Positions 10,891 through 60,427 of a stretch of 64,000 nucleotides of DNA are shown in pieces; within the stretch, counting starts at the first letter, position 1; every line of letters begins with the position of its first letter. The stretch is from Octopus sinensis (Eukaryota). The notes under the pieces were generated by a model that made no database searches, was not told where the DNA came from, and was given only the letters and a program-made list of their open reading frames with translations. A program made the translations under genes and the position numbers. The stretch lies in NCBI RefSeq assembly GCF_006345805.1, contig NC_043004.1, positions 18,848,001 to 18,912,000 of the forward strand, read 5' to 3'.

Positions 10891-13447
10891 TATCACATCA
10901 GTTTGTCCATTTATACGGAGACGTTACTTTTCTATTTTAGTGTGACGTAAGTAAATGGTAAATTAAAATTAAAATACTTACCTTATATTGACTTAAATGT
11001 TAAATCTAAAATATTTTTCTTTATTTTCAATTTGTGAATATGTCTAGAGGTTGCACCAATTCACCAGATATATTCTACTTTGTCCGCAGGCAATTCACCC
11101 CTTCAGATTTCCAGAGCAATATTACTTCTTTGTTGAAGCGCTTCTGTTTAGCTTATTTTGGCAGCAAACCGGGAGACCAGGAGAAGCCATTTGCACCCCA
11201 CAAAGCTTACAAGAGTTGCATCGGTAAGCTGCAAATGTGGTCAGTTGGAAAACTTAAATTTATACCCTTTGGAGAATCAATGGTATGGCGGGAACAGATG
11301 AACCACTAAAGTAGGTGGATTCAACAAGAAGACTAAAGGTTGCATAATATACCCAAATATTCCTTCAGCAATAATGCCTGTCCCACACTCAGATGATATT
11401 CCTGTACCTGTGCCACCTGAACCATGGGGAATTTTATCACATCTGATGATACTAATGAGACTATGAGCCACCAAAGTAGACTATGAGCCACTAACAAATA
11501 ACGATCCCAAATTCTTCAACCATGTTGAGCTCAATGACTTGGTTAGAGACCTTAACCTTCGAAAAGAAAGTGCACAGTTACTTGGATCTATACTGTAAGA
11601 ACACAAGCATCTAGCTCTTGGAACAACACTCGCTTCGTACCGTCATCGTGAAATGGAATTCATTTAGGTCTTTGAGAAAGTATTCTTTAGTTTTCTGTTC
11701 AAATATTTCTGGCCTTATTAAACCCATGGGTATGTCGTACAAAGCAGATAAATGGAGGCTTTTTCATTGCTTCTTCTAACAGAAGTTTAAAGGCTGGTCT
11801 TCTCCATAATGGCAACACAACTCTATCTGTGTCAATTGACCATATCGCTCAAATGCCAGAAACTTACGAAAATATGAAGACAGTATTAACTGCAATCAAG
11901 TACCATAATCAGAATTTTCTCATTTCTGATGATTTAAAAGTTATTGCTCTCCGACTAGGTCTTCAAGAGGAATACACTAAGTATCACTGTTTTCTGTGTC
12001 TTTGGGATAGTAGGGTAGACAGCCAGTACAATGAACAAAAAGGCTGGTCACCAAGAACCAGCTTCTTACTCGGAAATCACAACGTGAAAACTGTGCCACC
12101 ACTCCACATAAAATTAGGGCTTATGAAAAATTTTGCGAAGGCCCTGAACAAGAATGGAGCTACTTTCAAGTACCTGGAGTCAAAGTTTCCTCGTATGAGT
12201 GAAGGCAAGCTAAAAGTAGGACTCTTTGTTGGCCCTCAGATTTGGGAACTGATGATGGACAAACATTTTGAGGAAGCGTTAGCAGGTGTCGAAGTCAATG
12301 CCTGATTTTCCTCCAAAGAGGATTGTCCAAAAACAAGAGGCTAAACATAGAAGGGACAAACAAGAGGCTAAACATAGAAGGGACAAAACAAGAGGCTAAA
12401 CATAGAAGGGACAAACAAGGACAGACAAAGAGATTAAGTCGATTATATCGACCCCAGTGCGTAACAGGTACTTGTTTAATCGATCCCGAAAGGATGAAAG
12501 GCAAAATCGACCTCGGCGGAATTAAAGTCAGAACGTACCGGTAGACGAAATGCCTATTTCTTTACTACCCACAAGGGGCTAAACACAGAGAGGACAAACA
12601 AGGACAGACAAACGGACTAAGTCGATTACATCGACCCCAGTGCGTAACTGGTACTTATTTAATCTACCTCGAAAGGATGAAAGGCAAAGTCGACCTCGGC
12701 GGAATTTGAACTCAGAACGTAGCGGCAGACGAAATACCGCAAAGCATTTCGCTCGGCGTGCTAATGTTTCTGCCAGCTTACCGCCTTCAACTGCCCAAAA
12801 CCTCTTGGAAAACAGCCGCTCCCCACATTATGAAAAAATCATTCAAGACCTAGAATGAATGTGAAGATGCATTTTTTGCACTCGCATCTTGACTATTTTC
12901 TCCAGAATTGTGGCGACTACAGTGAAAAACAAAGAGAAGCGCAGTTCCATCAAGACATTTGCACCATGGAATCCCGATGCGATTCGAGGGTAAATGGAAT
13001 GGCAGCATGATGGCGGATAACTGCTCGACATTGAAACGTGATGGTCTCTATGCACAGCATAAGCAGAAATCAAAACAGTGCTCCTTCCTTTGAATCAATA
13101 TGTAGGCTAAACAATTAGGAGCATATTTTTTACATTCATTTGGTTTGATGTTGATAATTCTGATTCATTTCATTATGAACGTGCTTCCTTTCATGTTGAT
13201 TTGTAAAACATATGTTCTTAAAACTAACAGAATGTGCTTTTCCTTGATTAATTGCTTCATTTTAATGAGGTAACAATTTATTAAAAATTCACATTTTTAC
13301 CTTATTATTAATTTGTATTTTATTCAACATCTTTATGTGACAGGGCAAAATGGCTTCGATATTTACAGTCAGCAAGCCAAGAGTATGTAACATCACTTCT
13401 ATGAATAAAAATAAATATAAAACAAATTCCCAAATGCAGATCAGTTT
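10890..13447 (+). mobile_element. Chapaev3-type (CMC superfamily) DNA transposon, decayed, inserted in the Dong-C copy
   Basis: Transposase motifs AYFGSKPGDQEKPFAPH, MVWREQMNH, DLKVIALRLGLQEEYTKYHCFLCLWDSR, PPLHIKLGLMKNFAKAL, KFPRMSEGKLKVGLFVGPQI, KMHFLHSHLDYF. Right terminus degenerate, left TIR missing. Family name assigned from recalled motifs. Confidence 0.75.
12330..12787 (-). mobile_element. tRNA-derived SINE, family 1: head plus duplicated body, inserted in Chapaev3
   Basis: Minus-strand head GGCGG..AGCTGGCAGAAAC.TTAGC, B box GAGTTCAAATTCC, and central GTCGACTTTGCCTTTCATCCTTTCG. A second body copy follows, then a ~28-bp tail repeat x3. Confidence 0.85.
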
Positions 13448-14704: not shown

Positions 14705-15608
14705 CTTTCCTTCTTTCTTCAAACTCTCTTCCGTTTCTCGCCGAGTGTTTTCCGTACACCTAGGGCAGAGAAGCTCATTGTATGCATTCCCAGATTACAC
14801 ACGCAAATCCACAGATTAATAATTATATTTAAAAAATTAAAAAATAAATAAATTCATGAATGGATGTTGTTTTCACAGTGATAATGCTCTTCTCCGTACA
14901 TGAGCCGTTCCAGTTAATACGATTTTTTACCCTTCCTGTAGGGATGGTAAGCCGGGTATCATTTTCAAATAGGTTTCAGTACCTCTTTTTTTTCATTCCT
15001 AGAGATCCTACTATCACTGGTACTGTAGTCGCCTTGAGATGCCACATTTTTTCAATTTCTATTAGCAAGTCATTATATTTGCTGATCTTGTCAAATTCTT
15101 TCGCCGCTATATTGTGATCGCAAGGAATACTCATGTCAATTAATAAACACATCTTTTTCGTCTGATCTTTTATAATAATATCTGGTTTATTAGCTTTTAT
15201 AGTTTTCTCGGTATGTACGGGGAAGTCCCAGAGAATCGACACATTTTCTCCCTCAGTCACAGTTTCAGGATGGTGTTTATACCATTTGTCAGCGGTTTTG
15301 ATTTTATAATGCCGACATATTGTCCAATGTAAATACTGGCCGACTCTGTCATGTCTTGCTTTATATTCTACAGGTGCTAAGACTCTACGCCTTGAGATTA
15401 GGTTGTCTATAGTTTCAATCTCATCGTTACAGAATCGGCATTTTGAGTCAGCTCCATTTTTATCACATTGTCTTGGTAGTTTCGGGTTAATAAGCTTTGG
15501 TCTTGAGCAGCTAATATGAAACCTTTACTCTCTGCTTTTAAACCTGAGCTTCGTAACCATTGGTACGTGTGTTTCTGGTCGACATCAGCTTGTTTGCTAC
15601 GGGCCATA
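14705..15608 (-). mobile_element. Dong/R4-clade retrotransposon, family B, 5'-truncated
   Basis: QWLRSSGLKAESKGFILAAQDQ, RHD, and a restriction-like endonuclease ILWDFPVHTEKTIKANKPDIIIKD...LIDMSIP. 3' UTR homologous to the 35029 copy. TTA tracts on both sides. Confidence 0.9.
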
Positions 15609-15856
15609 TTATTATTATTATTATAATTATTATTATTATTATTATTCTATGTTTGACTTTTGCTTTATATTTGTACAAGTTGGCTCCAAGTCTCACCCAG
15701 AGACCTCAAGAGACAACAGGGTTGGAAGTTCATGTTGTTGTTATGCCTAGTGTGCCATATATTTGGGGGGTGGGGTGTTGTACTAATGAATGTCTAAAAA
15801 AAGTTTTTTTTTTTTCTTTTTTAAACCGAAAATTATGTTTGTTTTAAACCTTGAGA

Positions 15857-17480
15857 TTACATAGAAAGTATTTTGTGTAGGATATGAGCAGTTCCCATGA
15901 GCACTATCTTTTGAATTTCTGCCATTTTTGGGTTTCCTGGTATCTGAGTTAGGTAGCTATCAGCCCCTTTTGCTATCATTCCCAGGGCACCTATGACAAC
16001 AGGTAATGTTTTAGTCTTCAGGTTCCACATTTTGCTGATTTCTATTTCATGATCTTTATATTTGCTCAGTTTTTGGTAGGTCTTGACAGATACGTTTATA
16101 TCGATTGGGACAGTCATATCAATGAGGAGGCATGTTCTTTGTTTGAAGTCTTTCAATATGATGTCTGGCCTATTTGCATCTATCTTTCTGTCAGTTTGAA
16201 TGGTGAAGTTCCAGAGGAGTGAGATGTGGTCATTTTCAAGCACTGGGGGTGGTTTGTGTTCCCACAAGTTTTTTTCATGGGGCAAATCCAGGTTTTTACA
16301 GATTACCCAGTGAATATATTGTGCAGCTCTATCGTGCCTGTTGAGATACTCTGTAGGCGCTAGAAGACTGCACCTGGAGACCACATGGTCAATGGTTTCA
16401 TTTTGTTGCTTGCATACACGACACGTTGGACTGCTTCTGATCTTTAATATGTTGGCCTGGTAGTTTCTTGTTGGTAGGCATTGATCTTGAGCTGCTATGA
16501 TAAACCCCTCTGTTTCAGATTTTAAGCCAGAGGCCATTAGCCATTGATGGGTCAGGGCTTTGTCAACATCTGCATTATTTGCTCTCTTTGGGTATTTGCC
16601 ATAGAGAGGTTTTTCTTGCCATTTATCATTCAGAATATCTAAGGCCGCAGATTTAGCACGGGTTTTCATGCGCTTAGCTTTTTCTGTGCCTGTTTCTTGT
16701 ACGTCTATCTCTAATTCCGAAATTTGTTGTATTCGGGATTCACTTAGATATTCCTTTGCCTGTTTTGTTACTGAGTATGATGCTTTCTTGTTTTCATGTT
16801 TTGAGACAAGTTTTAACATCCAGTCCTCAGAGTTTTTCAGGTAGGTGTCTAGGCCAATTGTAGCAATCTTCATTGTTATTGCCAGTTGTAAAAGTCCACG
16901 GCCTCCCTCTTTTCTTGGCAGATAAAGTCGTTCTGTATCTGCCTTAGGGTGGTGCATTCTATGCAGTGTCAACAGTTTTCGTATTTTTCTGTCAAGATTA
17001 CATATTTCAGTAATTGACCAGTTAACGATATTGAAACTGTAAGTCACGACTGGTATGGCTAATGCATTGATCGCTTCGATCCTGTTTCTCGCATTCAGCT
17101 CTGTCTTGAGTATTGCTCTTACTCTGCGATAGCATTCTCTCCTGATCCTTTCCTTCATCTCTGAATGCCTTATTCCTTCTCCTTCAATTACCCCTAGATA
17201 CTTGTAGTTCTCTGCTGGGTCTAATTCTTTTATGACATTCTGCTGGTCAAGGTTAACGTTAGATGTTTCTGTCATTTTTCCTTTGATAAAGGTAGATTTT
17301 GCGCACTTATCGAGACCAAATTGCATTCTGATATCATCACTGAATTGTTTGACAATCGCTAGTAAGCCCTTGAGTTGTTGGTCATTGACAATCGCTAGTA
17401 AGCCCTTGAGTTGTTGGTCATTGACAATCGCTAGTAAGCCCTTGAGTTGTTGGTCATTGACAATCGCTAGTAAGCCCTTG

Positions 17481-17483
<3 letters not shown>
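15857..17483 (-). CDS. RT C-terminus, CCHC zinc finger and PD-(D/E)xK restriction-like endonuclease of Dong-A (no native start)
   Basis: FGLDKCAK, YKYLG, HHPKADTERLYLPRKEGGRGL, CRVC...ETIDHVVSRC, RHD, RPDIILKD..LLIDMTVP..K..KY. The upstream part of the listed 625-aa ORF is microsatellite read-through. Confidence 0.9.
17349..17483. repeat. 36-bp tandem repeat (3.75 copies) at the 5' junction of Dong-A
   Basis: TTGACAATCGCTAGTAAGCCCTTGAGTTGTTGGTCA starts at 17349, 17385 and 17421, with a partial copy at 17457. Confidence 0.95.
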
Positions 17484-17522
<39 letters not shown>

Positions 17523-17603
17523 GTTGTTGTTGTTGTTGTTGTTGTTATTATTATCATTGTTATTATTACTACTATTACTATTATTATTATTATTATTATT
17601 ATT

Positions 17604-17796
17604 GAGTGAGAGAGCAGTGCATGCCATCGAAGTGACACTGGGGTAAAATATACGAAGCCCAATATACCCATCATGACTACCCGTCTGATAAAGGTACACC
17701 AGGCACATGCATCACAACCATATGTGCGCGACATGGTGATCTCATATCAAGATAAACAGCACATGACCTTGCAGGTGGGGCCCAGTTAGAATTTTC
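17604..17796 (-). mobile_element. Second copy of the TTA-associated non-coding repeat, interrupted by the foldback element and resuming at 19710-19745
   Basis: Homologous to 8821-9025. The sequence resumes after 19709 (GAATTTTCTTCAGGTTGAGTAGCCCATCCCGCTCAA). Confidence 0.8.
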
Positions 17797-19709
17797 GGTT
17801 AATATAGGGCGTAACAAATATCAGAAAATCAAAAAAAAAATGTGTGTAATAGGTGTAAAACAACTTCCTATGAACGAATATGAAAAAAAAATTCGCGCAC
17901 GCGAAAGGGGGTGGGGGAGAGGCCTCGGAAAATTCACATCGGGAAGTTCCGAAAGCGTCTGAGGAGCTGACCCGGGCACCAAAACAAAAAAAAATAGTGT
18001 AATATGTGTAAAACAACTTGCTCTAAACGAATATGACAAAAAAAATGCGCTCTCGCGAAAGAGGGGTGGGGAGAGGCCTCGGAATATTTATATCGGGAAT
18101 TTCCGAAAGCGTCTGAACCGGGCACAAAAACAAAACAAAAACAGCGTAATAGGTGTAAAACAACTTGCTCAAACGACTATCATGAAAAAAATGCGCGCTC
18201 GCGAAAGGGGGTGGGGAGAGGCTTCGGAAATTTCACATCTTCAGTCCACGGCCTTTAAACTAAGAAAAATAGTGTAATTGGTGTAAAACTACTTGTTCTA
18301 AACGAGTATCAAGAACACACACTCACACATGAATCATAAACTCCGTATTTCGCAAAAAAAAAATAATAAAGAGAAGAAATTCTGGAAAAAGTGAAGAAAT
18401 GTTGGATCTCATTCCTTGGTTAAAGCTATTTTAAACATTAATTTATGCTTTTCTTTGAAATAGTTCAGATATATGCAATTCTTCTCACTTATTAAGATGC
18501 ATTTATCAGAAAAAAAGAGACAGAAAAATTATTATTTTGTGTCAATCCTTCCCTAATTATCCTTTATTAATTAGTTTTGGCGTGTATTTTTTTCCCAAAT
18601 TTATTTTTTCACCTTTACAACACTGTTTAGTAAAGCAATTAATTATCTTTATAATTTGCATATTTGACTTATTAATCAAAATTCTCTAGATGTAATATAT
18701 ACTAAGTAATGCATCCTTCATTTATGTGTTCCGTTCTGTATTATGCATGCGTGAGTGTTTGTATGTAAGTGTGTTTAACTGTGCACATGAATGTGAATAT
18801 TAAAGAACATATTTATTGACTATGATTGTTATTTTCAGAACAAATAAATCTTTTGGCTGTTATGTTATTGATGTTATTATTATTGCTAGTTAAAGAGTGG
18901 TGACTTGGCTGAATATTTTGAGTCTTGTAGTATGTAGTTGTGTTAGTCAATATTCTGAGTTCAAATCCAACTCATTTCTTTATCATCATTATCGATGGAC
19001 CACTCAAAGAGGTATGTATACATTATCATTTTCGTAACATAATTTCTGTAGTATTTCAAGATGTTTCTGACACGTATTTTGATTCACATGGCGGAGATCC
19101 AACATTTCTTCACTTTTTCCAGAATTTCTTCTCTTTATTTTTTTTTTTGCGAAATACGGAGTTTATGATTCATGTGTGAGTGTGTGTTCTTGATACTCGT
19201 TTAGAACAAGTAGTTTTACACCAATTACACTATTTTTTCTTAGTTTAAAGGCCGTGGACTGAAGATGTGAAATTTCCGAAGCCTCTCCCCCACCCCCCTT
19301 TCGCGAGCGCGCATTTTTTTCATGATAGTCGTTTAGAGCAAGTTGTTTTACACCTATTACGCTGTTTTTGTTTTTGTTTTTGTGCCCGGTTCAGACGCTT
19401 TCGGAAATTCCCGATATAAATATTCCGAGGCCTCTCCCCGCCCCTCTTTCTCGAGAGCGCATTTTTTTTTTCATATTCGTTTAGAGCAAGTTGTTTTACA
19501 CATATTACACTATTTTTTTTTGTTTTGGTGCCCGGTCAGCCCCTCAGACGCTTTCGGAACTTCCCGATGTGAATTTTCCGAGGCCTCTCCCCCACCCCCC
19601 TTTCGCGTGCGCGAATTTTTTTTTCATATTCGTTCATAGGAAGTTGTTTTACACCTATTACACACATTTTTTTTTGATTTTCTGATATTTGTTACGCCCT
19701 ATATTAACC
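17797..19709. mobile_element. Non-autonomous foldback DNA transposon, Merlin-like
   Basis: Termini GGTTAATATAGGGCGTAAC...GTTACGCCCTATATTAACC. 8-bp TSD GAATTTTC at 17789-17796 and 19710-19717. Near-identical inverted arms 17797-18410 and 19094-19709, each built from ~150-bp subrepeats. Confidence 0.85.
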
Positions 19710-20123
19710 GAATTTTCTTCAGGTTGAGTAGCCCATCCCGCTCAATGTTATTATTATTATTGTTGTTGTTCTTATTATTCAATATTTGGCAGTTTCAGGC
19801 AAATTTCTACTGCATCACCCGTTACATTGTGTTCTTTTTTGTTGTGGGATAGTGCAAAGTCTTCCCGGTAGTGTATTGCGTCCGTTTCTTTTTTAATGTG
19901 TCTGGTGCAGTCTTTTGCAGTATCAATGTTTGTACTGAATGTTGTGCGTGTAGTGCATTGGGTTACACGCCAGTTGGTGGTTGTTTATTTTATTGGATAT
20001 TTGCTATATAGAGTATGTCTTGTGTTTGTGGATTGTTTTTTTGGGCTGTATTATGAATTGTTAGTGCCCAGTATGGTGTCTGTCGAATGACGAGTAAGAG
20101 ATAAAAAGGAATATATATATATG

Positions 20124-20793: not shown

Positions 20794-21172
20794 TAGAGTA
20801 AAACCTGTTCTATGTGATACATTGTACCAGTATCGGAAGTTTCAAGGTGTTTAGTTAAAAAATTAATGAGATTATCTGTACGCCAAATTGAATAGATCCG
20901 AAATGTTTGAAAGGCAAAGTCGACCTCGTCGAAATTTGAACTCAGAACGTAAAGACAGACTAAATACCGCTTCTAAAAAAAAAAATGTCAAAAAAGTTAA
21001 GAGTAAACCCTGCTCTATGTGACGCATTCTACCACTATCTGAAGTTTCAAGGTGTTTAGTTAAAAAGCATTAATCAAATAACCTGTGCGTCACATTGAAT
21101 AAATCCCAAATGGATAAAAGAAAAAGTCGACCTTGTCGGAATTTGAACTCAAAATGTAGACAGGCGAAATAC
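20794..21172. repeat. Diverged ~205-bp tandem duplication that includes a SINE fragment
   Basis: GAGTAAA.CCTG.TCTATGTGA...GAAGTTTCAAGGTGTTTAGTTAAAAA...AAAGTCGACC occurs at ~20794 and ~20999. Confidence 0.7.
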
Positions 21173-21374
21173 CTATTTCTTTACTACCCACAAGGGACTA
21201 AACACAGAGAGGAGAAACAAGGACAGACAAACGGATTAAGTCGATTACATCGACCCCGAAAGAATGAAAGGCAAAGTCGACCTCGGCGGAATTTTAACTC
21301 AGAACGTAGCGGCAGACGAAATACCACTAAGCATTTCGCCCGGCGTGCTAACGATTCTACCAGCTCACCACCTT
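21165..21374 (-). mobile_element. tRNA-derived SINE, family 1
   Basis: Homologous to 12556-12787. Confidence 0.85.
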
Positions 21375-35790: not shown

Positions 35791-35862
35791 TGCTTTCTAA
35801 TCTATGTATCAATACCAATATAGAGCTGCGCACAGTAGTGTAGTGAAAGAACGTGATAAAAA
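35791..35862 (+). mobile_element. Possible extreme 3' stub of Dong family C between TAA tracts
   Basis: GTAGTGAAAGAACGTGATAAAA resembles the Dong-C 3' tail at ~9395-9420 (reverse complement GCAGTGAAGGCATGTGATAAAAA). Confidence 0.45.
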
Positions 35863-35915
<53 letters not shown>

Positions 35916-35918
<3 letters not shown>

Positions 35919-36959
35919 GCTAGGCGCATGAAAACCCGTGCCAAAACTGCGGCCTTAGATATTCTGAATAATAAATGGCAAGAAAAACCTCTCTATGGCA
36001 AATACCCAAAGAGAGCGAATAATGCAGATATCGACAAAGCCCTGACCCATCAATGGCTAATGGCCTCTGGCTTAAAATCTGAAACAGAGGGGTTTATCAT
36101 AGCAGCTCAAGATCAATGCCTACCAACAAGAAACTACCAGGCCAACATATTAAAGATCAGAAGCAGTCCAACGTGTCGTGTATGCAAGCAACAAAATGAA
36201 ACCATTGACCATGTGGTCTCCAAGTGCAGTCTTCTAGCGCCTACAGAGTATCTCAACAGGCACGATAGAGCTGCACAATATATTCACTGGGTAATCTGTA
36301 AAAACCTGGATTTGCCCCATGAAAAAAAGTGGTGGGAACACAAACCACCCCCAGTGCTTGAAAATGACCACATCTCACTCCTCTGGAACTTCACCATTCA
36401 AACTGACAGGAAGATAGATGCAAATAGGCCAGACATCATATTGAAAGACTTCAAACAAAGAACATGCCTCCTCATTGATATGACTGTCCCAATCGATATA
36501 AACGTATCTGTCAGGACCTACCAAAAACTGAGCAAATATAAAGATCTTGAAATAGAAATCAGCAAAATGTGGAAGCTGAAGACTAAAACAATACCTGTTG
36601 TCATAGGTGCCCTGGGAATGATAGCAAAAGGGGCTGATAGCTACCTAACTCAGATACCAGCAAACCCAAAAATGGCAGAAGTTCAAAAGATAGTGCTCAT
36701 GGGAACTGCTCATATCCTACGCAAAATACTCTCTATGTAACCTCAAGGTTTAAAACAACCATAATTTTCGGTTTAAAAAAAAAAAAAAAAAAAAAAACTT
36801 TTTTTTTTTTAGACATTCATTAGTACAACATCCCCACCCCCCAAATATATGGCACACTAGGCATAACAACAACATGAACTTCCAACCCTGTTGTCTCTTG
36901 AGGTCTCTGGGTGAGACTTGGAGCCAACTTGTACAAATATAAAGCAAAAGTCAAACATA

Positions 36960-36960
<1 letters not shown>
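35916..36960 (+). mobile_element. Dong/R4 family A, 5'-truncated, with an intact zinc-finger/endonuclease frame to 36740
   Basis: By eye about 14 amino-acid differences over ~274 aa versus the 15857 copy. Same 3' UTR; (AAT)n flanks. Confidence 0.95.
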
Positions 36961-37003
<43 letters not shown>

Positions 37004-38648: not shown

Positions 38649-40195
38649 ATTGATGGAATTACATTATCAGTCTTTAAGTTTCGATTTTATAACAGGAGAA
38701 AGGAAAAAGACAGAAAAAGACAGTAAAAAAGAGGAAAGAGAAAAGGAAAGGAAAAACCAGGATATTTAATCAGTTCTGTATAAATTTGATGATATTCTGT
38801 CATTTTATTCATTCCTCCGGCTGATGAAATAGCTGTTTGAAACGAAGATATTTTTCGCTACATTCTGGTAACTTTCATGCAACACTTTTGAAATGGCAGC
38901 GAAATTTCGGTGCCAGTCAATCACTAAAGGAATTATGTCATCTATCGTATTGTGTTTGCTAAAATTATGCGTGAAGGGGTGACTATCTTTGCTAATCTTA
39001 GCTATTTCGTTTGCTATTTACTTTAATCGTAATCCACTGTAACCGCGTTTGATATAATGATGTACAAAGACGTTTGCATGTTTCCAGTAATCTGCTATGT
39101 CAGTACAAATCCGTTTCATCCTTATAAATTGAGATTTCGGATTTGACCGAATAATATGATGTGGAAGATCGGAGCGGCGATGGTGATAAATGTGGGATGA
39201 TGTGGGCTTGCAGAAAACTACCTCCAGAAAACTTAACTTTTATGTACAAAAATTCAACGCTAGTTTTTGAAAAACTAGACGTAAATTTTATGCTGTACTT
39301 AAAGCCCTAGTTTTTAGCATAACAGTCACAGAAATGCAGGAAGTCCTTTAAATTATCAATGAACCGTAATCAGAGTATTGGTTCATGACCATGAAGGGAT
39401 TTGAATGTTTACAGTAACTTTGTGCCGAATTTCGCCATGATGACATTAGAGAAATTAAATACCATAGGAGTACCCATGGCGCAACACTTTGTCAGGTGGT
39501 AAAATCTTTGTCTAAACTTCATTGTGTTACTTTGTAAGACAAACCTCAATATCTACAGAGAAAATTTGATGGAATACTTTTGTTTGACCGCATTTGGAAG
39601 GCATCCATGCATGCTTCTACTCCTTCATCGTGGTCAATATTGGGATGTAAGGAAGAAACATCCATGGTTACCAAAAACAGTTCTCGACACGGCCTCGGTA
39701 CTTAAAAAAGTTCTTGATTTTAGACACGAAATCAAAAGTATCTCAAATATAGGAACTTGATCATTTTGCGACAGGGTGTAGAAAGCCATCCGGCCATTCC
39801 AAAATCTTGGCTGTGCAACATTCATATCCGCTGCAAATTAGGTGCATTGGAGGAAAGTTTTCGAACTTGTGTATTTTAGGAAGAGCATAAAATACAGGTG
39901 TTCTTTCTGACCGTAAAAGCCTGGATTCGGTCTTATTAACGAAATGGTTTTCCTCCACTTCCTAAGTTATTTTGTCAAGTTCCTCTCTGCAATTGGGGTT
40001 TGGATCAACAGGTAATTCTTCATATGAAGTTTCGTCATTTAAAACTTCTTCACAAGCTGAAATATAGTCACTTTTGTCCAGAATTTTCCTTTCGTTTCTT
40101 CCTCTTTCCTAATTTTTACTGTCTTTTTTTTTGTCTTTTTCATTTCGCCTGTTATAAAATTGAAACTTAAAGACTGGTGATGTTATTCCATCAAT
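38649..40195 (-). mobile_element. Penelope-like element remnant with inverted terminal segments
   Basis: RT fragment RTPVFYALPKIHKFENFPPMHLICSG...FLHPVAK..SYI.DTFDF at ~39700-40075. Inverted repeat 38649-38762 / 40077-40195. Hammerhead-like CUGAUGA...GAAAUUUC at 38821-38908 on the + strand. Confidence 0.7.
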
Positions 40196-40637: not shown

Positions 40638-40989
40638 TTACAAATTAGCACGAAGCGTAAGGACACGGAAAAGCATCAACCTGCTAGAAATAAGAGCTAA
40701 ACTCTTAATTAAACCATCGTAAGGCACCAAGATAAATAAAAGAAATAAAAGAAATAAAATTAGGCGAGGAAACAAAAAGAATTAATACGCTCAAAAGCAA
40801 AACTATGAAAGATTAAGCTACTTAATCTTTCATAATTTTGCTTCTGAATGCAATAATTATTTCCGTCTCTTCGCCTACTGTTATTTCTTTGTGATCTTAA
40901 TGATTTACGCTGGTTTAATTAAGTATTTAGCTCTTATTTCTAGCAGATTGATGCTTTCCTACATCGTTATGCTTCGTGCTAATTTGTAA
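40638..40989. mobile_element. Fully palindromic (hairpin) MITE-like element
   Basis: Termini TTACAAATTAGCACGAAGC...GCTTCGTGCTAATTTGTAA. Complementarity runs, with mismatches and indels, to a 3-nt centre (GATTAAG-CTA-CTTAATC, 40811-40827). Confidence 0.8.
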
Positions 40990-49052: not shown

Positions 49053-49205
49053 TAACAACAACATCGAAAATACCTTAGGAATGAGAAGCCAGATTCAAAC
49101 TTTCCTCAAGACACCTGATGAAGGCTGGAGGGTATATCAGCCGAAACATTGTGTTAATAACGAACAACATAAGGACAAATATCCGTCAAATGTAAATAAT
49201 GTTCA
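48858..49205 (+). mobile_element. tRNA-headed short retroelement with internal (TAA)n and a type I hammerhead (49110-49155)
   Basis: A box TGGCGTAGTGG at 48905 and a degenerate B box at ~48948-48959. Hammerhead reads GACAC CUGAUGA A GGCUG-(10)-CAGCC GAAA CAUU GUGUU. Confidence 0.7.
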
Positions 49206-49620: not shown

Positions 49621-49673
49621 AAAAAAGCATCCATAATTATGTTACGAGTCAAAGGGGGCACCTGGAATATATA

Positions 49674-50234
49674 CGAGGGTGAGTCAAATATTAATGCCAT
49701 TTTGTTTAGGACCGGTATAATTACCAGCACAGGAACATGTATCATACACCAAAATGAAGCTGGTTATCTGTAAATTACATCTCTACATCTCCACATAGTC
49801 GCTGTTTCTCTCATTAGCAATGTCCCACCTTCGATTGAGAGCATGTATCCCTGCCTCGTAAAATTCTGTTGACTGTTCTTTGAGCCACTTCTTCACTACA
49901 ATTTTCACTTCCTCTTCACTAGAATAATGTTTGTCTCTCAAAACCTCTTTCATAGGGCCGAAGAGATGATCGTCTGAAGGCGCTAAATTATTCCAGTGAC
50001 GAGGAAGTGAAAACTGTAGTGAAGAAGTGGCTCAAAGAACAGTCAACAGAATTTTACGGAGCAGGGATACATGTTCTCATTCGAAGGTGGAACATTGCTA
50101 TTGAGAGAAATGGTGATTATCTTGAGATGTAGGGAAGTGATTTACAAAGGACCAGCTTCATTTTGATGTATGATACATGTTCCTGTGTTGATGATTGTAC
50201 CTGCCTAAAAAAATTAATTTTTGACTCACCCTCG
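49674..50234. mobile_element. Mariner-derived hairpin MITE built from two right ends
   Basis: TIRs CGAGGGTGAGTCAAA flanked by TA. Both arms encode the transposase C-terminus (EEVK.VVKKWLKEQSTEFY.AGIH.L.RRW..A.ERN.DY.EM*) in opposite orientations. Confidence 0.88.
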
Positions 50235-50255
50235 TATACACGGCACTTCAAATTA

Positions 50256-51490: not shown

Positions 51491-52552
51491 AAGATGGAAG
51501 CAAACCCTATATTAACGGTTATGTATATATAAATACATACATATATATATATATATATACATGCGCATATTCATGCAAGTATATATACATGATGACTGCC
51601 AACTCGTGTTGCCCGCCTTTTCGTAAGTACACTCATGCGAACGCCACGAGCAGCCATTTTTGTGATAGGTCTTACATTTTTTCAAGCTATGCCTGTGCAT
51701 GATATTTTCTTTTAATAGTGGGAGAGAATTTGCACAAATCCAGTCCCATTCTTTGAACATAGACAACATAAACTTGAAGGGAATAACTAGTCTACATCAT
51801 CGAATACTGTCAGTGTCGCAGGTTTTCTGTAAGAGTTTCTCCCTTCTAGAGAGATATTGTAACAACAACAGAGTCTCCTCCCACTCCCAGTGGGCCAACT
51901 GTGCGCCTGGACAACAACCCTGGTATTTCCACGTCTCTGCGCGTGCACATACGTACATGCATACATATATACATACATACATACATACATACACACACAC
52001 ATACATACATAGATACATATATACATACACACACACAAACAAACAAAAATACCTTGTTGTTGATGGTGAACTTTCAATGAAGTAGCCTTGGATCTAGGTT
52101 AGGAATCGACTCTTTCTTCATTGGCAACGACTCTTGAAATAAACTGAATAATGGTGTACATACAGTTTATTCTTCAACAAAAATAGGATTGAAAGCGATT
52201 TCAAAGTTTTGACCAGCTAAGCGTTATCGGACCGTTCAATGATGGCTTAGATGGCCTAATCTTCGAAGTCACAGTCAATTTTATTATTTTTAAAGAATAA
52301 TAAATATGTTCTCTCACATCAAGCAATCCTTCATATTAATGTATTGTGTTTATTATAATTGAACATAGAAACAAACATTAACGCGTGTGTGTATGTGGCT
52401 GTGTGTGTGCACATGCGTGTGTGTGAGAGAGTGAGTATGTGAAAGAGTGTTTGTGTGTGAGTATACGGATATGCATATATATATATATATATATATGTGT
52501 GTGTATATGTATGTACACTTATTCATATATATGAATATACACATGTATATCA

Positions 52553-52586
<34 letters not shown>

Positions 52587-52839
52587 GTATATATAAAAAT
52601 ACAAAATGGGACAAGAACGCAAAACATTCAAGTAGACGATACAAAAAATACGGACGGGTTATTCGAAGCCTCTGTTCTTCAGTCAAGAACCGGATCATCC
52701 TCGCAATTTCGGCTGATTAATCTTGAGATTGCTCCGCTCTGGCCAGCCCCAAGGAAAAACTAAGCTACGAGCATTATATTTCTTGGGAAAAGGATCGAAT
52801 GTATACGAAACAAGGACAGAAAAACGGACGATGTAACGC

Positions 52840-52903
<64 letters not shown>

Positions 52904-53159
52904 TTTAACAATTAAGGATATCTCTTAATAAGGGATCTTAACAAGAAATTATCGGGTAGCTAGCGTGAAAACCTCATAAAAGAAAAGAATTCGAAAATAA
53001 TTTTTTTCTTTTGAACAAATTAATTATATCTATATTGCATAGAGGGCATTATTACACATAAATGCCTCACACTAGGAGGGACAAAGTCATTACTACCAAA
53101 ATTATACTAATCATACCCAAATGCAGTTTTTCAAAGCAAGACATTTAAAAAATGAATTT

Positions 53160-53216
53160 AGTCTGTATCACCGTGATTTCACATTCAACTTACGTCTAAT
53201 GATCCTCAGCAGAACT
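53160..53216 (-). ncRNA. Type I hammerhead ribozyme, copy 1 (1-nt deletion in stem I)
   Basis: Same motif as 54148-54205, except + strand AGTCTG instead of AGTTCTG. Confidence 0.7.
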
Positions 53217-53642
53217 GATTCTGAACACATCATAAATAAACTACCAACCTTACGTAGCGAAGACGAACAGACAACTGCTCACTCCGGCCAAGCACATGGA
53301 ATGTTTATAAATCATATATCCGGTAAATGGCGGGCTTTTTACGAACTGCATGTCGGGTAATGAAAAGTATTTCGGAATAAGTTTAACAATTAAGGATAAT
53401 CTCTTAATAAGAGATCTTAACAAGAAATTATCGGGTAGCTAGCGTGAAAACCTCATAAAAGAAAAGAATTCGAAAATAATTTTTTTTTTTCTTTTGAACA
53501 AATTAATTATATCTATATTGCATAGAGGGCATTATTACACATAAATGCCTCACACTAGGAGGGACAAAGTCATTACTACCAAAATTATACTAATCATACC
53601 CAAATGCAGTTTTTCAAAGCAAGACATTTAAAAAATGAATTT

Positions 53643-53700
53643 AGTTCTGTATCACCGTGATTTCACATTCAACTTACGTCTAATGATCCTCAGCAGAACT
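53643..53700 (-). ncRNA. Type I hammerhead ribozyme, copy 2
   Basis: Reverse complement of 54148-54205. Confidence 0.8.
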
Positions 53701-54147
53701 GATTCTGAACACATCATAAATAAACTACCAACTTTACGTAGCGAAGACGAACAGACAACTGCTCACTCCGGCCAAGCACATGGAATGTTTATAAATCATA
53801 TATCCGGTAAATGGCGGGCTTTTTACGAACTGCATGTCGGGTAATATGCAATATAGATATAATTAATTTGTTCAAAAGAAAAATTATTTTCGAATTCGTT
53901 TCTTTTATGAGGTTTTCACGCTAGCTACCCGATAATTTCTTGTTAAGATCCCTTATTAAGAGATTATCCTTAATTGTTAAACTTATTCCGAAATACTTTT
54001 CATTACCCGACATGCAGTTCGTAAAAAGCCCGCCATTTACCGGATATATGATTTATAAACATTCCATGTGCTTGGCCGGAGTGAGCAGTTGTCTGTTCGT
54101 CTTCGCTACGTAAGGTTGGTAGTTTATTTATGATGTTGTTCAGAATC

Positions 54148-54205
54148 AGTTCTGCTGAGGATCATTAGACGTAAGTTGAATGTGAAATCACGGTGATACA
54201 GAACT
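54148..54205 (+). ncRNA. Type I hammerhead ribozyme, copy 3
   Basis: Stem I AGUUCUG/CAGAACU (7 bp). Core CUGAGGA at 54155-54161. Stem II U-CAUU-A-GAC-GUAA-GUU-G-AAUG-U. GAAA at 54184-54187. Stem III AUCAC-G-GUGAU. AUA triplet, predicted cut after 54198. Confidence 0.8.
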
Positions 54206-54327
54206 AAATTCATTTTTTAAATATCTTGCTTTGAAAAACTGCATTTGGGTATGACTAGTATAATTTTGGTAGTAATGACTTTGTCCCTCCTAGTGTGAGG
54301 CATTTATGTGTAATAATGCCCTCTATG

Positions 54328-54374
<47 letters not shown>

Positions 54375-54629
54375 TATGTATTTATACCTATTCATATGTA
54401 TGAATATTCACATGTATATCAAATGTATACAATATATATATATATAAGGATGTGACAATGCTGGGGCACGAGTGTATGTGGGTGTGTGAATGTGAGTATA
54501 TAGTATGATTTTGGTCGATTCTTTTTGTTTTCTTTGCTCTTTATCTGGAAGAAATATGTTTTATTTTATACTGGAAGATATATGTCAATATATCAGAGGG
54601 AATAGCTGTTTGACAGTATCCACACTTCC

Positions 54630-56656: not shown

Positions 56657-56693
56657 TAATGCTTCTCGGTAATATTACCAGATTAATCGGTTC

Positions 56694-57140
56694 TGGGGTC
56701 GATGTAATCGACTTAATCCTTTTGTCTGTCCTTGTTTGTCCTCTCTGTGTTTAGCCCTTTTTGGGTAGTAAAGAAATAGGTATTTCGTCTGCCGCTACTT
56801 TCTGAGTTCAAATTCCGCCGAGGTCGACTTTGCCTTTCATGCTTTCGGGGTCGATTAAATAAGTACCAGTTATGCACTGGAGTCGATATAATCGACTTGA
56901 TCCGTTTGTCTATCCTTGTTTGTCCCCTCTGTGTGAAGCCTCTTGTGGGCAGTAAAGAAATCGGTATTTTGTCTGCCGTTACGTTCTGAGTTCAAATTCC
57001 ACCGAGGTCGACTTTGCCTTTCATCGTTTCGGGGTCGATAAATTAAGTACTAGTTACGCATTGGGATCGGTGTAATCGACTTTATCCTTTTTTCTGTCCT
57101 TGTTTGTCCTCTCTATGTTTAGCCCCTTTTGAGCAATAAA
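56694..57140 (+). mobile_element. Headless tandem array (~2.4 x 183 bp) of the SINE family 1 body
   Basis: Units start near 56694, 56877 and 57060. B box and GTCGACTTTGCCTTTCAT are present in the full units; no A-box head. Confidence 0.85.
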
Positions 57141-58067
57141 GAGATAAAAAGAAAATGCCTAAGACCATAGCTTATCGTATGAAAGGATTGTGCATACAAG
57201 AAAAATTCGTAATAATTATAGAAAGTGACAGGATAGTGGTGGTTTGTCGGACCTTAATTAAAGACTTACTAGGTCAGAGCTCTCCGAGAACGAAAGAGAA
57301 ACTATAGGCATATATTATAACATATATATCACAGTATGAAATAAAGAACACTATAGTTATCACATCAGGCACTGTCTGTCATTCTTCATGGCCTAGGAGG
57401 GTGAAGTATGATTTGAAATTACATGGAAACATGGTATATCTAGAGCCAGGAATATGTGAGATAGAGAGAAACATTCAACACACTACCTGGTCAGGAGATA
57501 GTAGAATCTACTTGATCAGAATTTATTTGGAGAAACAGCACTGGACGCAATTTGAAAATTCAAATTAAGTTAAATATAGTGTAAATTGGAACAGTAATAA
57601 ACAGCAAATGTAGATAGTCAAAGAGAGCAGTTATATAAACTTTATAAATTGACAGTCATGTAATTGTTAAGAAATAAATTATTGATTTTTATTGCTTAGA
57701 CAGTTCTTTTGAAATGATTACATTTATGTATGTTGAATACAGGTATATAAACAGATATAAATATGGTTGTGTGGTAAGAAGCTTGCTTCCCAATCACAAG
57801 ATTCCAGGTTCAGTGCTACAGTACTAAATTTAACAAACAAATCCTTTTTTTTTTCCTTATTTTTAATAGTGGCACTTACAAAAGGCACAGAAAGTGTGTC
57901 AATAGCCAGCTGGAGGAGGTTTCTTCCTGGGGCTACAAGCTACAGTGTCATCCACCATAAAGCGTTAGCCACATTTAAGTGGCAAATACACTTCACGATG
58001 TCGTGCAGCCACTTTGTATACCTCGCTCAAAGATGTATATATATATATATATATATACATACATACA

Positions 58068-58624: not shown

Positions 58625-58843
58625 TTATTAGTTTCTACTCTAAGCATAGGGCCTGAAATTTGGGGGGAGGGGGTCAGTCGATTAGACCGATCCCAGTACG
58701 CAACTGGTACTTAATTTATCGACTCCGAAAGGATGAAAGGCAAAGTCGACCTCGGTAAAATTTGAACTCAGAACGTAGCGGCAGACGAAATACAGCTACG
58801 CATTTCACGCGGCGTGCTAACGTTTCTGCCTGCTCACTGCCTT
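58625..58843 (-). mobile_element. tRNA-derived SINE, family 1, alternative tail
   Basis: Homology to 12620-12787. Confidence 0.85.
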
Positions 58844-60427
58844 AAATTTTACATATTCTGTTGAGTTATGTTATCTAACATGGGTTTATCAAAGCCATCA
58901 CGATTCTTTATGGAAACCCATATCGATTTGTGCTAAATACAGATGGCCCAACTAAAATACATGCAACACGTGTAAGAATTCTTCAGAGAGACGCCAAGCT
59001 TCCTTCTTCTTTGCGATTGCAATGGACTCCTTCCTTAGAAACAGACTTGATCACATCTCTAGCCAAAATTCTCACAGGGTCGATCAAGATGTCTGCTGAG
59101 CTCTTATTTCACTTACCTTGATTTTCTGAATGAACCTGCTATCACCCTTCATCACGTTTGTGATGAGCAAGACTTGAGAGTGCAACGGACAATGGGTGCT
59201 TTATCTGAATCAAAAGAATTCTGAATGCATGACAGTAAAAGATGACAAAGACCACGTATCAATTTGTTCGAACGATGGCATGTAATTCAAAGATGTCAGT
59301 GGTTTAAAAACCTTGGCTTCTATGTCGATTTTCCTCGCAATAAGAAAGACTTGCTTATTGGCGAACGACTAGACCTGAGTGTCTGTAACAAGCGTCTAAT
59401 TATGAGACAATTATGTATATCAAATCTTCAAGTAAGGTGTGGATTGCATTCATCTCTTTAGAACTAGATACTACCCCATAAGGAAGGACTCTTAAAATGA
59501 AATTCATGGTGCATACATCAAGTTTCTCAAAACGGCTTAAAACATTTTATAGTCTGAAAAAGAAGACTAAAGACAAAATTCATGGACATAGTTCAGCCAA
59601 CTCTGTTATTACTGTTCATTGTAAGGTAGGCTTTACTTATAATGTTATTATACTGAATAACAGACCACATTAAATGTTATTCTTTGAAAAGTTCTGCACT
59701 TTATCGGAGCATAGCAGGAAATTAAGGATCTACCAAATCTCATGGAGAATAGTTATTCCTCGGGTAACTTTATGAGGTGCACGTGGGTTGCGACCGTTTG
59801 AAGACGAAATTAAATGTAAGATAAAGTATTCTCTCACGTTTATTTGGCGCTTATATTTTCAATAGTCTTTTGAAATTTCAGTGAACTTAGTGTAAGTTGT
59901 CTTTGAAGATTTTACCATAAACCACACTTCTAACTAATGAGACACCTGCTATTTCTTAAAATCTTATACTTTACTGTCTGAAGTATTTAAATACTAATCT
60001 ATTATTAATAAATACATGAACGAGGCGTACTGGAAAATGAAAGAAGTACCAGTCGAACACGGGTGTCGATGTAATCATTATACCTCCTCCCCTAAAGTTT
60101 CAGGCCCTTTGTCTATCATAGAAAGGATTATTACTTGATAGAAGCTTTATATATTAAATTACGAATCAATTCCAAGAAGGTCGGAGAAGACAGAATTATA
60201 TTTCAGTTTTCTAATTGCTCACATCTTGCCAGAAGTTACTATTACATTCACAACTCTAGCCATTATCTTCAACAATATTTCAGATTATCTATCACAATAT
60301 TTGATGGTATCATGCTATAGTGTTGCATACCAGATGTTTCATAAATAATTAACATTAACAATCATCCAATTTGTTAATGATACAATTAGAAGGAAAAAAG
60401 AAAACGGACGTAAACATATAACAGAAC

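Follow-up and report, generated by a model that had tools for sequence, protein, structure and literature searches.

The 64,000-nt stretch of Octopus sinensis DNA that was analysed (the window; contig NC_043004.1) is AT-rich and microsatellite-dense, and between two of its (TA)n tracts lies a three-unit insertion with a unit of ~480 nt, of which 947 nt are in the minus sense and the following 490 nt in the plus sense. GC content is 0.33 over 53001-54000, none of the 20 window ORFs of at least 120 aa overlaps the element, which is thus non-coding, and the repeat map of the locus contains no LTR-type layout. The features of the insertion and its surroundings, in positions of the window, are:

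52470..52595, plus strand: upstream copy (X) of a direct duplication of ~120 nt, consisting of GC(AT)11, a low-complexity but specific stretch of ~50 nt, and (TA)n
52596..52839: segment E, 244 nt, exactly between X and X'
52838-52901 plus 54330-54446: downstream duplicate X', split by the insertion
52840..52901: left (TA)n tract, the start of X', preceded by GC as in X
52899..53361, minus strand: outer unit of the left block, 463 nt, its outer end meeting (TA)n via 3 nt
53160..53216, minus strand: hammerhead of the outer left unit, predicted cut 53166/53165, with a 1-nt deletion in stem I
53362..53845, minus strand: inner unit of the left block, 484 nt, defined by the repeat period and the unit alignment
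53643..53700, minus strand: hammerhead of the inner left unit, predicted cut 53650/53649
53845..53845: head-to-head (5'-5') join, one base common to both blocks
53845..54334, plus strand: right block, one lap of 479 nt plus 11 nt
54148..54205, plus strand: hammerhead of the right block, variant type I, predicted cut after 54198
54293..54328, plus strand: predicted stem-loop just inside the family 3' end, from folding and a depth peak over the matching 53517-53550
54330..54340, plus strand: recurrent 3' end of the family, where the template matches (TA)n at 10 of 11 positions
54330..54446, plus strand: right (TA)n tract (54330-54365) and the rest of X'

The anatomy of the insertion can be read directly from the repeat maps. 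The tandem repeat map shows that 52899-53845 is a dimer with a period of 484 nt and a 98% match, and 53845-54334 is an inverted copy of the unit that is 97-99% complementary to this dimer; the length of the unit across the three copies is 479-484 nt. In terms of unit phase, the left block amounts to two laps minus 15 nt. The original prediction had both blocks pointing their 3' ends outward into TA, meeting head-to-head at 53845 with an overlap of 1 nt, copying about two and one unit lengths, and ending away from the ribozyme cleavage site. Each of these statements agrees with our measurements, given that hammerhead sense is minus in the left block and plus in the right block, that a single base is shared at the join, that the blocks have the lengths given above, and that the predicted cleavage sites are located 136 nt (right) and 267 nt (left) from the outer ends. 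The right block aligns entirely within the left block (53523-53024), and the complementary arms in the inverted-repeat map are 156 nt apart at the join, so that there is no palindrome at this position. Over about 1430 nt, comparison of the three units reveals small indels and 5 substitutions, every one of which is confined to a single unit (3 of them to the right block). Moreover, no derived allele is common to two units at 13 family-variable sites (2 of which are uncallable in the outer unit). Singleton-only differences, when combined with the absence of shared derived alleles at these sites, fit three units that were identical at the time of insertion.

A variant type I hammerhead is present in every unit, as recognised by core motifs and constrained folding. 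Its CUGAGGA and GAAA cores follow the type I order; stem I is 7 bp long, stem II has a basal U-U, and stem III is short and palindromic. The stem I deletion weakens the predicted fold of the outer left hammerhead (-7.3 vs -12.0 kcal/mol). The palindromic stem III is predicted to be capable of pairing between molecules as well (-13.9 kcal/mol), and the unconstrained minimum-energy fold is an alternative that lies 2.4 kcal/mol lower and retains stems I and II. In addition, the predicted fold of a circular monomer is better than that of shuffled sequences (z -3.4; 60 shuffles). Among the contig ends listed for related copies, those at 53656 retain the GAAA core and have an altered central base in the palindrome. 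The Rfam hammerhead model gives no match at its gathering score in the whole window, or at E values up to 10 in 52800-54400, where the 23 weak Rfam matches at the latter threshold are microsatellite or chance. On the strength of its motifs and fold, the element may be regarded as a candidate self-cleaving RNA, with cleavage predicted at the positions listed above. A compensating change for the 1-nt deletion in stem I was considered and dropped; the other listed deletion (53682) falls in stem II. Isolated hammerhead-like cores, both on the plus strand and downstream of (AAT)n, are also seen at 49115-49150 and 38821-38850, where the stems look decayed.

The predicted cleavage sites bear on the nature of the template. 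The left block is composed of 196 + 484 + 267 nt across two such sites, unit-to-unit sequence included, and a cleaved monomer is therefore impossible as its template. The RNA that was copied must have been an uncleaved multimer or a circle, as had been proposed from the first reading of this DNA.

The flanks of the element preserve a record of the site before insertion. The specific stretch of X, at 52503-52553, has a second copy at 54373-54422 with 45 of 50 nt identical, and a 48-mer from X has 5 mismatches at X' as against 12 at the next best position in the window. The X/X' pair scores 75, compared to a maximum of 42 in 1592 sliding control windows and 37 in 101 TA-adjacent controls, a set from which the partner copy, as the 102nd position, is excepted. 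The order is GC(AT)11 and stretch in the upstream copy, and GC(AT)n, element, (AT)n and stretch in the downstream one. Because X has a TA tract and X' is split by the element, the site carried a TA tract before insertion. An empty site with such a tract had been anticipated, and the proxy X, which is a paralogue and not a true empty allele, does hold (AT)11. The TA tracts measure 62 + 36 nt at the filled site vs 22 nt in the paralogous copy, and any target duplication is hidden in (TA)n. The X/X' duplication is older than the retrozyme insertion. We rejected the idea that it represents the target duplication of the retrozyme itself, given 5 differences in 50 nt vs 5 substitutions in about 1430 nt of units. 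Segment E, for which there is no second full copy in the window, is probably an older TA-targeted insertion with X/X' as its long target duplication. On its minus strand, a GGCTG...CAGCC stem followed by GAAA resembles a decayed hammerhead stem II, and segment E and then the retrozyme have the appearance of nested insertions at one TA-rich spot.

Since the left and right flanks rebuild one X', they form a pair, and this makes a chimeric assembly less likely. The 53845 join is not seen among the contigs of four public runs, as might be the case if it were produced by the assembly or by a read folding back on itself, but the single duplicate rebuilt by both flanks, and the 3 private substitutions of the right block, which are unlike a folded read, make such an artefact highly improbable.

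Public sequence runs place the element in a family. Part of it is contained in 20 of the 24 runs listed, which cover five organism codes and one metagenome; the marine metatranscriptome X20, with 0.11 of the element's words, carries no weight as evidence. An exact-pattern scan of viral contigs and two of metagenome contigs each give 0 loci. The contig sets of four runs were placed on one unit. These contigs are short, were read to 76-100% (845-2402 contigs per run), and are not loci, so that their depths give no copy number. Of the 237 rows of loose contig ends, 24 are listed; separately, 6 rows of joints with extra letters are of unstated kind. The contigs of the four runs contain family variants, head-to-tail joints (back 482-484), and varied TA-joined ends, and by this comparison the element appears to be multicopy and dispersed, and to occur head-to-tail elsewhere as well.

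The right end of the insertion can be understood in this context. Its microhomology is 5 nt when exact and 10 of 11 nt with one mismatch, and this 11-mer is the best TA-like sequence among 479 unit positions, every other site having 8 matches or fewer. Among the rows listed, loose ends before 53508, which is the position to which the end of the right block maps, run into (TA)n in 32 contigs of run X1 and 14 contigs of run X2 (2 of the 4 runs). The consensus agreement of these ends is 0.87 and 0.73, respectively, showing that the flanks vary. Among the loose ends listed, then, the right end presents itself as a fixed, recurrent end of the family and not as an arbitrary AU-rich site. Summed contig depth over 53517-53550 is in the highest bins for 2 of the 4 runs and rises in the other 2, and the stem-loop predicted at the corresponding place in the right block (54293..54328) may serve as a recognition element for the reverse transcriptase. 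The 3'-terminal ~58 nt, comprising the stem-loop and the TA-like end, are shared with a related family that diverges behind 53565, where loose ends are found in 40 (X1), 25 (X6) and 25 (X2) contigs among the rows listed. This family may represent either a sister retrozyme or the terminus of an autonomous partner.

The left end behaves differently. The microhomology with the template, originally given as ATAT, is ATA (52899-52901; 3 nt), and a random breakpoint in the unit yields at least 3 nt of microhomology 9.4% of the time and at least 5 nt 2% of the time. The 3-nt match is at chance level and fits end-joining as well as it fits priming. No cluster of loose ends is present at this position (53379 in unit terms) among the 24 of 237 rows listed, which is a weak negative. 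The proposal that both ends are variable AU-rich priming sites is not supported: the right end behaves as a priming end but is fixed and joined to (TA)n, and the left end contributes a chance-level match of 3 nt. Recurrence of the inverted join within the family had also been named as a check; no strand-change joint is labelled among the 3 joint-table rows of the four runs, a weak negative in view of the short contigs.

Two independent insertions of opposite orientation into one TA tract are very unlikely. The family does target (TA)n and the spot had already taken an older insertion; moreover, the common alleles shared by the units are weak evidence for one event, most of the listed family variants being minor alleles. 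Against this, the blocks adjoin with no intervening TA, the left block is without the family 3' end, and the divergence of the units is similar.

By sequence-level features, the element would be classified as a new non-LTR retrozyme with an inverted insertion of the known Penelope type. It shares with non-LTR retrozymes a short, low-GC, non-coding tandem unit containing one type I hammerhead each. A basal U-U in helix II is also found in the axolotl retrozyme HHR_Amex2, which is described in the relevant passages of PMC7229834 as cleaving weakly alone and well as a dimer. The unit of 479-484 nt exceeds the 150-450 bp stated there for metazoan non-LTR retrozymes but is within the range of 51-972 bp given in passages of a 2026 preprint (10.64898/2026.07.22.740005). 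Retrozyme mobilisation by Penelope-like elements from circular RNA is put forward as a proposal, and the circular template as a hypothesis, in the text of PMC7229834; in that of the preprint, Penelope-driven mobilisation is argued from co-occurrence and trees. Neither inverted insertions nor a fixed 3' end nor (TA)n targeting is described in the main text passages of these two sources, and the word "inverted" is absent from the main text of PMC7229834. We found no description of inverted retrozyme insertions or of Penelope twin priming in the open-access literature, covered mostly as main text, and a prior report may exist.

Passages of PMC8557442 report both 5'-truncated copies in inverted orientation and (TA)n targeting in Penelope-like elements, and call the mechanism of inverted Penelope-type insertions undefined. 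The metadata of the same paper record a preference for (TA)n in two Octopus Naiad families, and Naiads are described as lacking canonical hammerheads. The likeness to inverted Penelope-like insertions noted in the original prediction is well founded to the extent that the head-to-head layout matches the Penelope type described in passages of PMC8557442 and PMC3846280. The locus has an inverted 5'-truncated copy abutting a 5' end, a microsatellite target, and a fixed internal 3' end, here 136 nt past the predicted cut (listed in 2 of the 4 runs). Consistent with the last of these, the sections of PMC11167929 on an Anolis Penelope-like protein report fixed internal RNA start sites that are independent of ribozyme cleavage. 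Unlike the Penelope-like elements of these passages, however, the element is without an ORF, has no palindrome at the join, and has no identified tail of 30-40 nt. Its inverted block also ends elsewhere than at the family 3' end, giving no terminal inverted repeats, in contrast to the head-to-head pLTRs described for Penelope.

LINE-1 twin priming, as described in the passages of 10.1101/2024.08.27.596794 and 10.1101/2024.12.14.628481, offers a second comparison. In both systems one side carries the canonical 3' end and the opposite side an inverted part that begins at an incidental internal site, with little homology at the join (1 nt here). They differ in that the template at our locus is a tandem or circular non-coding RNA and not a poly(A) mRNA, and in that the inverted part exceeds the canonical one in length (947 vs 490 nt), whereas the canonical arm of L1 is about 2.6-fold longer. 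If both blocks had been copied from one RNA, their adjacency would require a 337-nt deletion or a 142-nt duplication; the corresponding L1 medians are 14.5 nt and 22 nt (10.1101/2024.08.27.596794), with long distribution tails that could include our values. Twin priming of the L1 type on one RNA fits poorly.

We tentatively favour priming from both strands of a cut TA tract in one retrotransposition event, stopping a little short of calling this reading of a single locus probable. A non-autonomous hammerhead element would be mobilised in trans by a Penelope-like reverse transcriptase/endonuclease, an enzyme that we infer, at a doubly cut (TA)n. In the first step, which is well supported, the right TA end would pair with the TA-like site and prime at the usual 3' end, giving one lap plus 11 nt; priming at this end follows from the fixed family end together with Penelope biochemistry. 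The other TA end would then prime at an incidental ATA, 131 nt beyond that site in the unit; the template, an uncleaved multimer or circle, would probably have been a second RNA molecule, of which nearly two laps were copied. Finally, the two cDNA 3' ends would be joined via the one shared base and filled in. This scheme is consistent with the outward orientation of both 3' ends into one pre-existing TA tract, with the recurrence of the right end next to (TA)n at the best TA-like site, and with the ability of a Penelope-like protein to nick and extend both strands at AT-rich DNA, as reported in passages of PMC11167929. On the other hand, the Anolis enzyme of those passages began at identical sites whichever strand it extended, without needing homology, which predicts a canonical left end that is absent here. 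The chance-level match at the left end and the failed adjacency on one RNA also count against two-strand priming, as does the dependence on one locus for which the four runs list neither a strand-change joint nor the join itself. Inspection by eye of the window's 20 long ORFs revealed none of Penelope type, nor was a partner element identified.

Each block ends close to the phase of its own outer end (+11 nt for the right block, -15 nt for the left), for which the probability with uniform ends is ~0.004, a post hoc value for two blocks. This hints at circular templates. In a form of the scheme that we consider rather unlikely, each strand would have primed on its own circular RNA and the reverse transcriptase would have halted on return to its start. 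If this were true, the locus would directly preserve in the genome an event in which a two-headed Penelope-type enzyme copied circular RNA by target-primed rolling-circle synthesis, and head-to-head Penelope structures would be explained without self-priming.

A doubtful but still credible alternative to priming from both strands is that a single target end was primed, followed by a jump to an antisense strand or by self-priming, with the far end joined to TA by microhomology. The jump could have been made to the element's own cDNA, to a second cDNA, or to antisense RNA. In a feasible self-priming version, the 947-nt cDNA folds back with a loop of ~320 nt, copies 490 nt, and ends at the TA-like site. 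Self-priming at a palindrome is the proposal published for head-to-head Penelope structures, in the passages of PMC3846280, and the right block does lie wholly inside the left block. Moreover, a 5-nt match to the inner end of the left block is present 10 nt upstream of the start of the right block, and occurs twice in the unit. The palindrome on which the published model is based is, however, missing at the join, where there is instead a spacer of 156 nt. Fold-back from the right-hand cDNA would supply just 333 of the 947 nt, and fold-back from the left would imply that priming first took place at the non-canonical end. No derived allele is common to both blocks, and the alleles alone do not decide.

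Insertion of a head-to-tail array, with later inversion of its 5' part at the DNA level and loss of ~337 nt, is unlikely. Head-to-tail joints exist in the family and no inverted joint is listed, as if the inversion were rare and secondary. A clean inversion, however, needs the left outer and right inner ends to be adjacent on the unit, and they are actually 142/337 nt apart. One breakpoint would also have to coincide with the TA boundary and the other to lie within the array, leaving the flank uninverted, and the three units are about equally diverged.

One locus proves no mechanism. Nevertheless, the combination of a fixed end, a TA target and an inverted copy provides structural support for Penelope-driven mobilisation of retrozymes. 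In addition, insertion lengths in this family can be counted from the fixed TA-joined 3' end as their origin, and lengths of whole laps would point to circles.

The window contains several other repeats. A foldback-like element at 17788-19718 has 629-nt inverted repeats of 97.3% identity around a core of ~680 nt, and each of these repeats contains a tandem array of ~154 nt. Two imperfect palindromes, one about 570 nt long (82% self-complementary) and one about 350 nt long (77%), are located at 49670-50238 and 40638-40989, respectively. One dispersed repeat forms tandem arrays of 183-184-nt units at 12388-12738 and 56693-57146, 88% alike, with further copies near 21095-21374 and 58676-58846. 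Finally, two 3' fragments with 97% identity lie beside (AAT)n tracts at 15607-16681 and 35916-37000, accompanied by ORFs at 15857-17746 (minus strand) and 35847-36740 (plus strand), and each looks like the end of a LINE with a restriction-like endonuclease.
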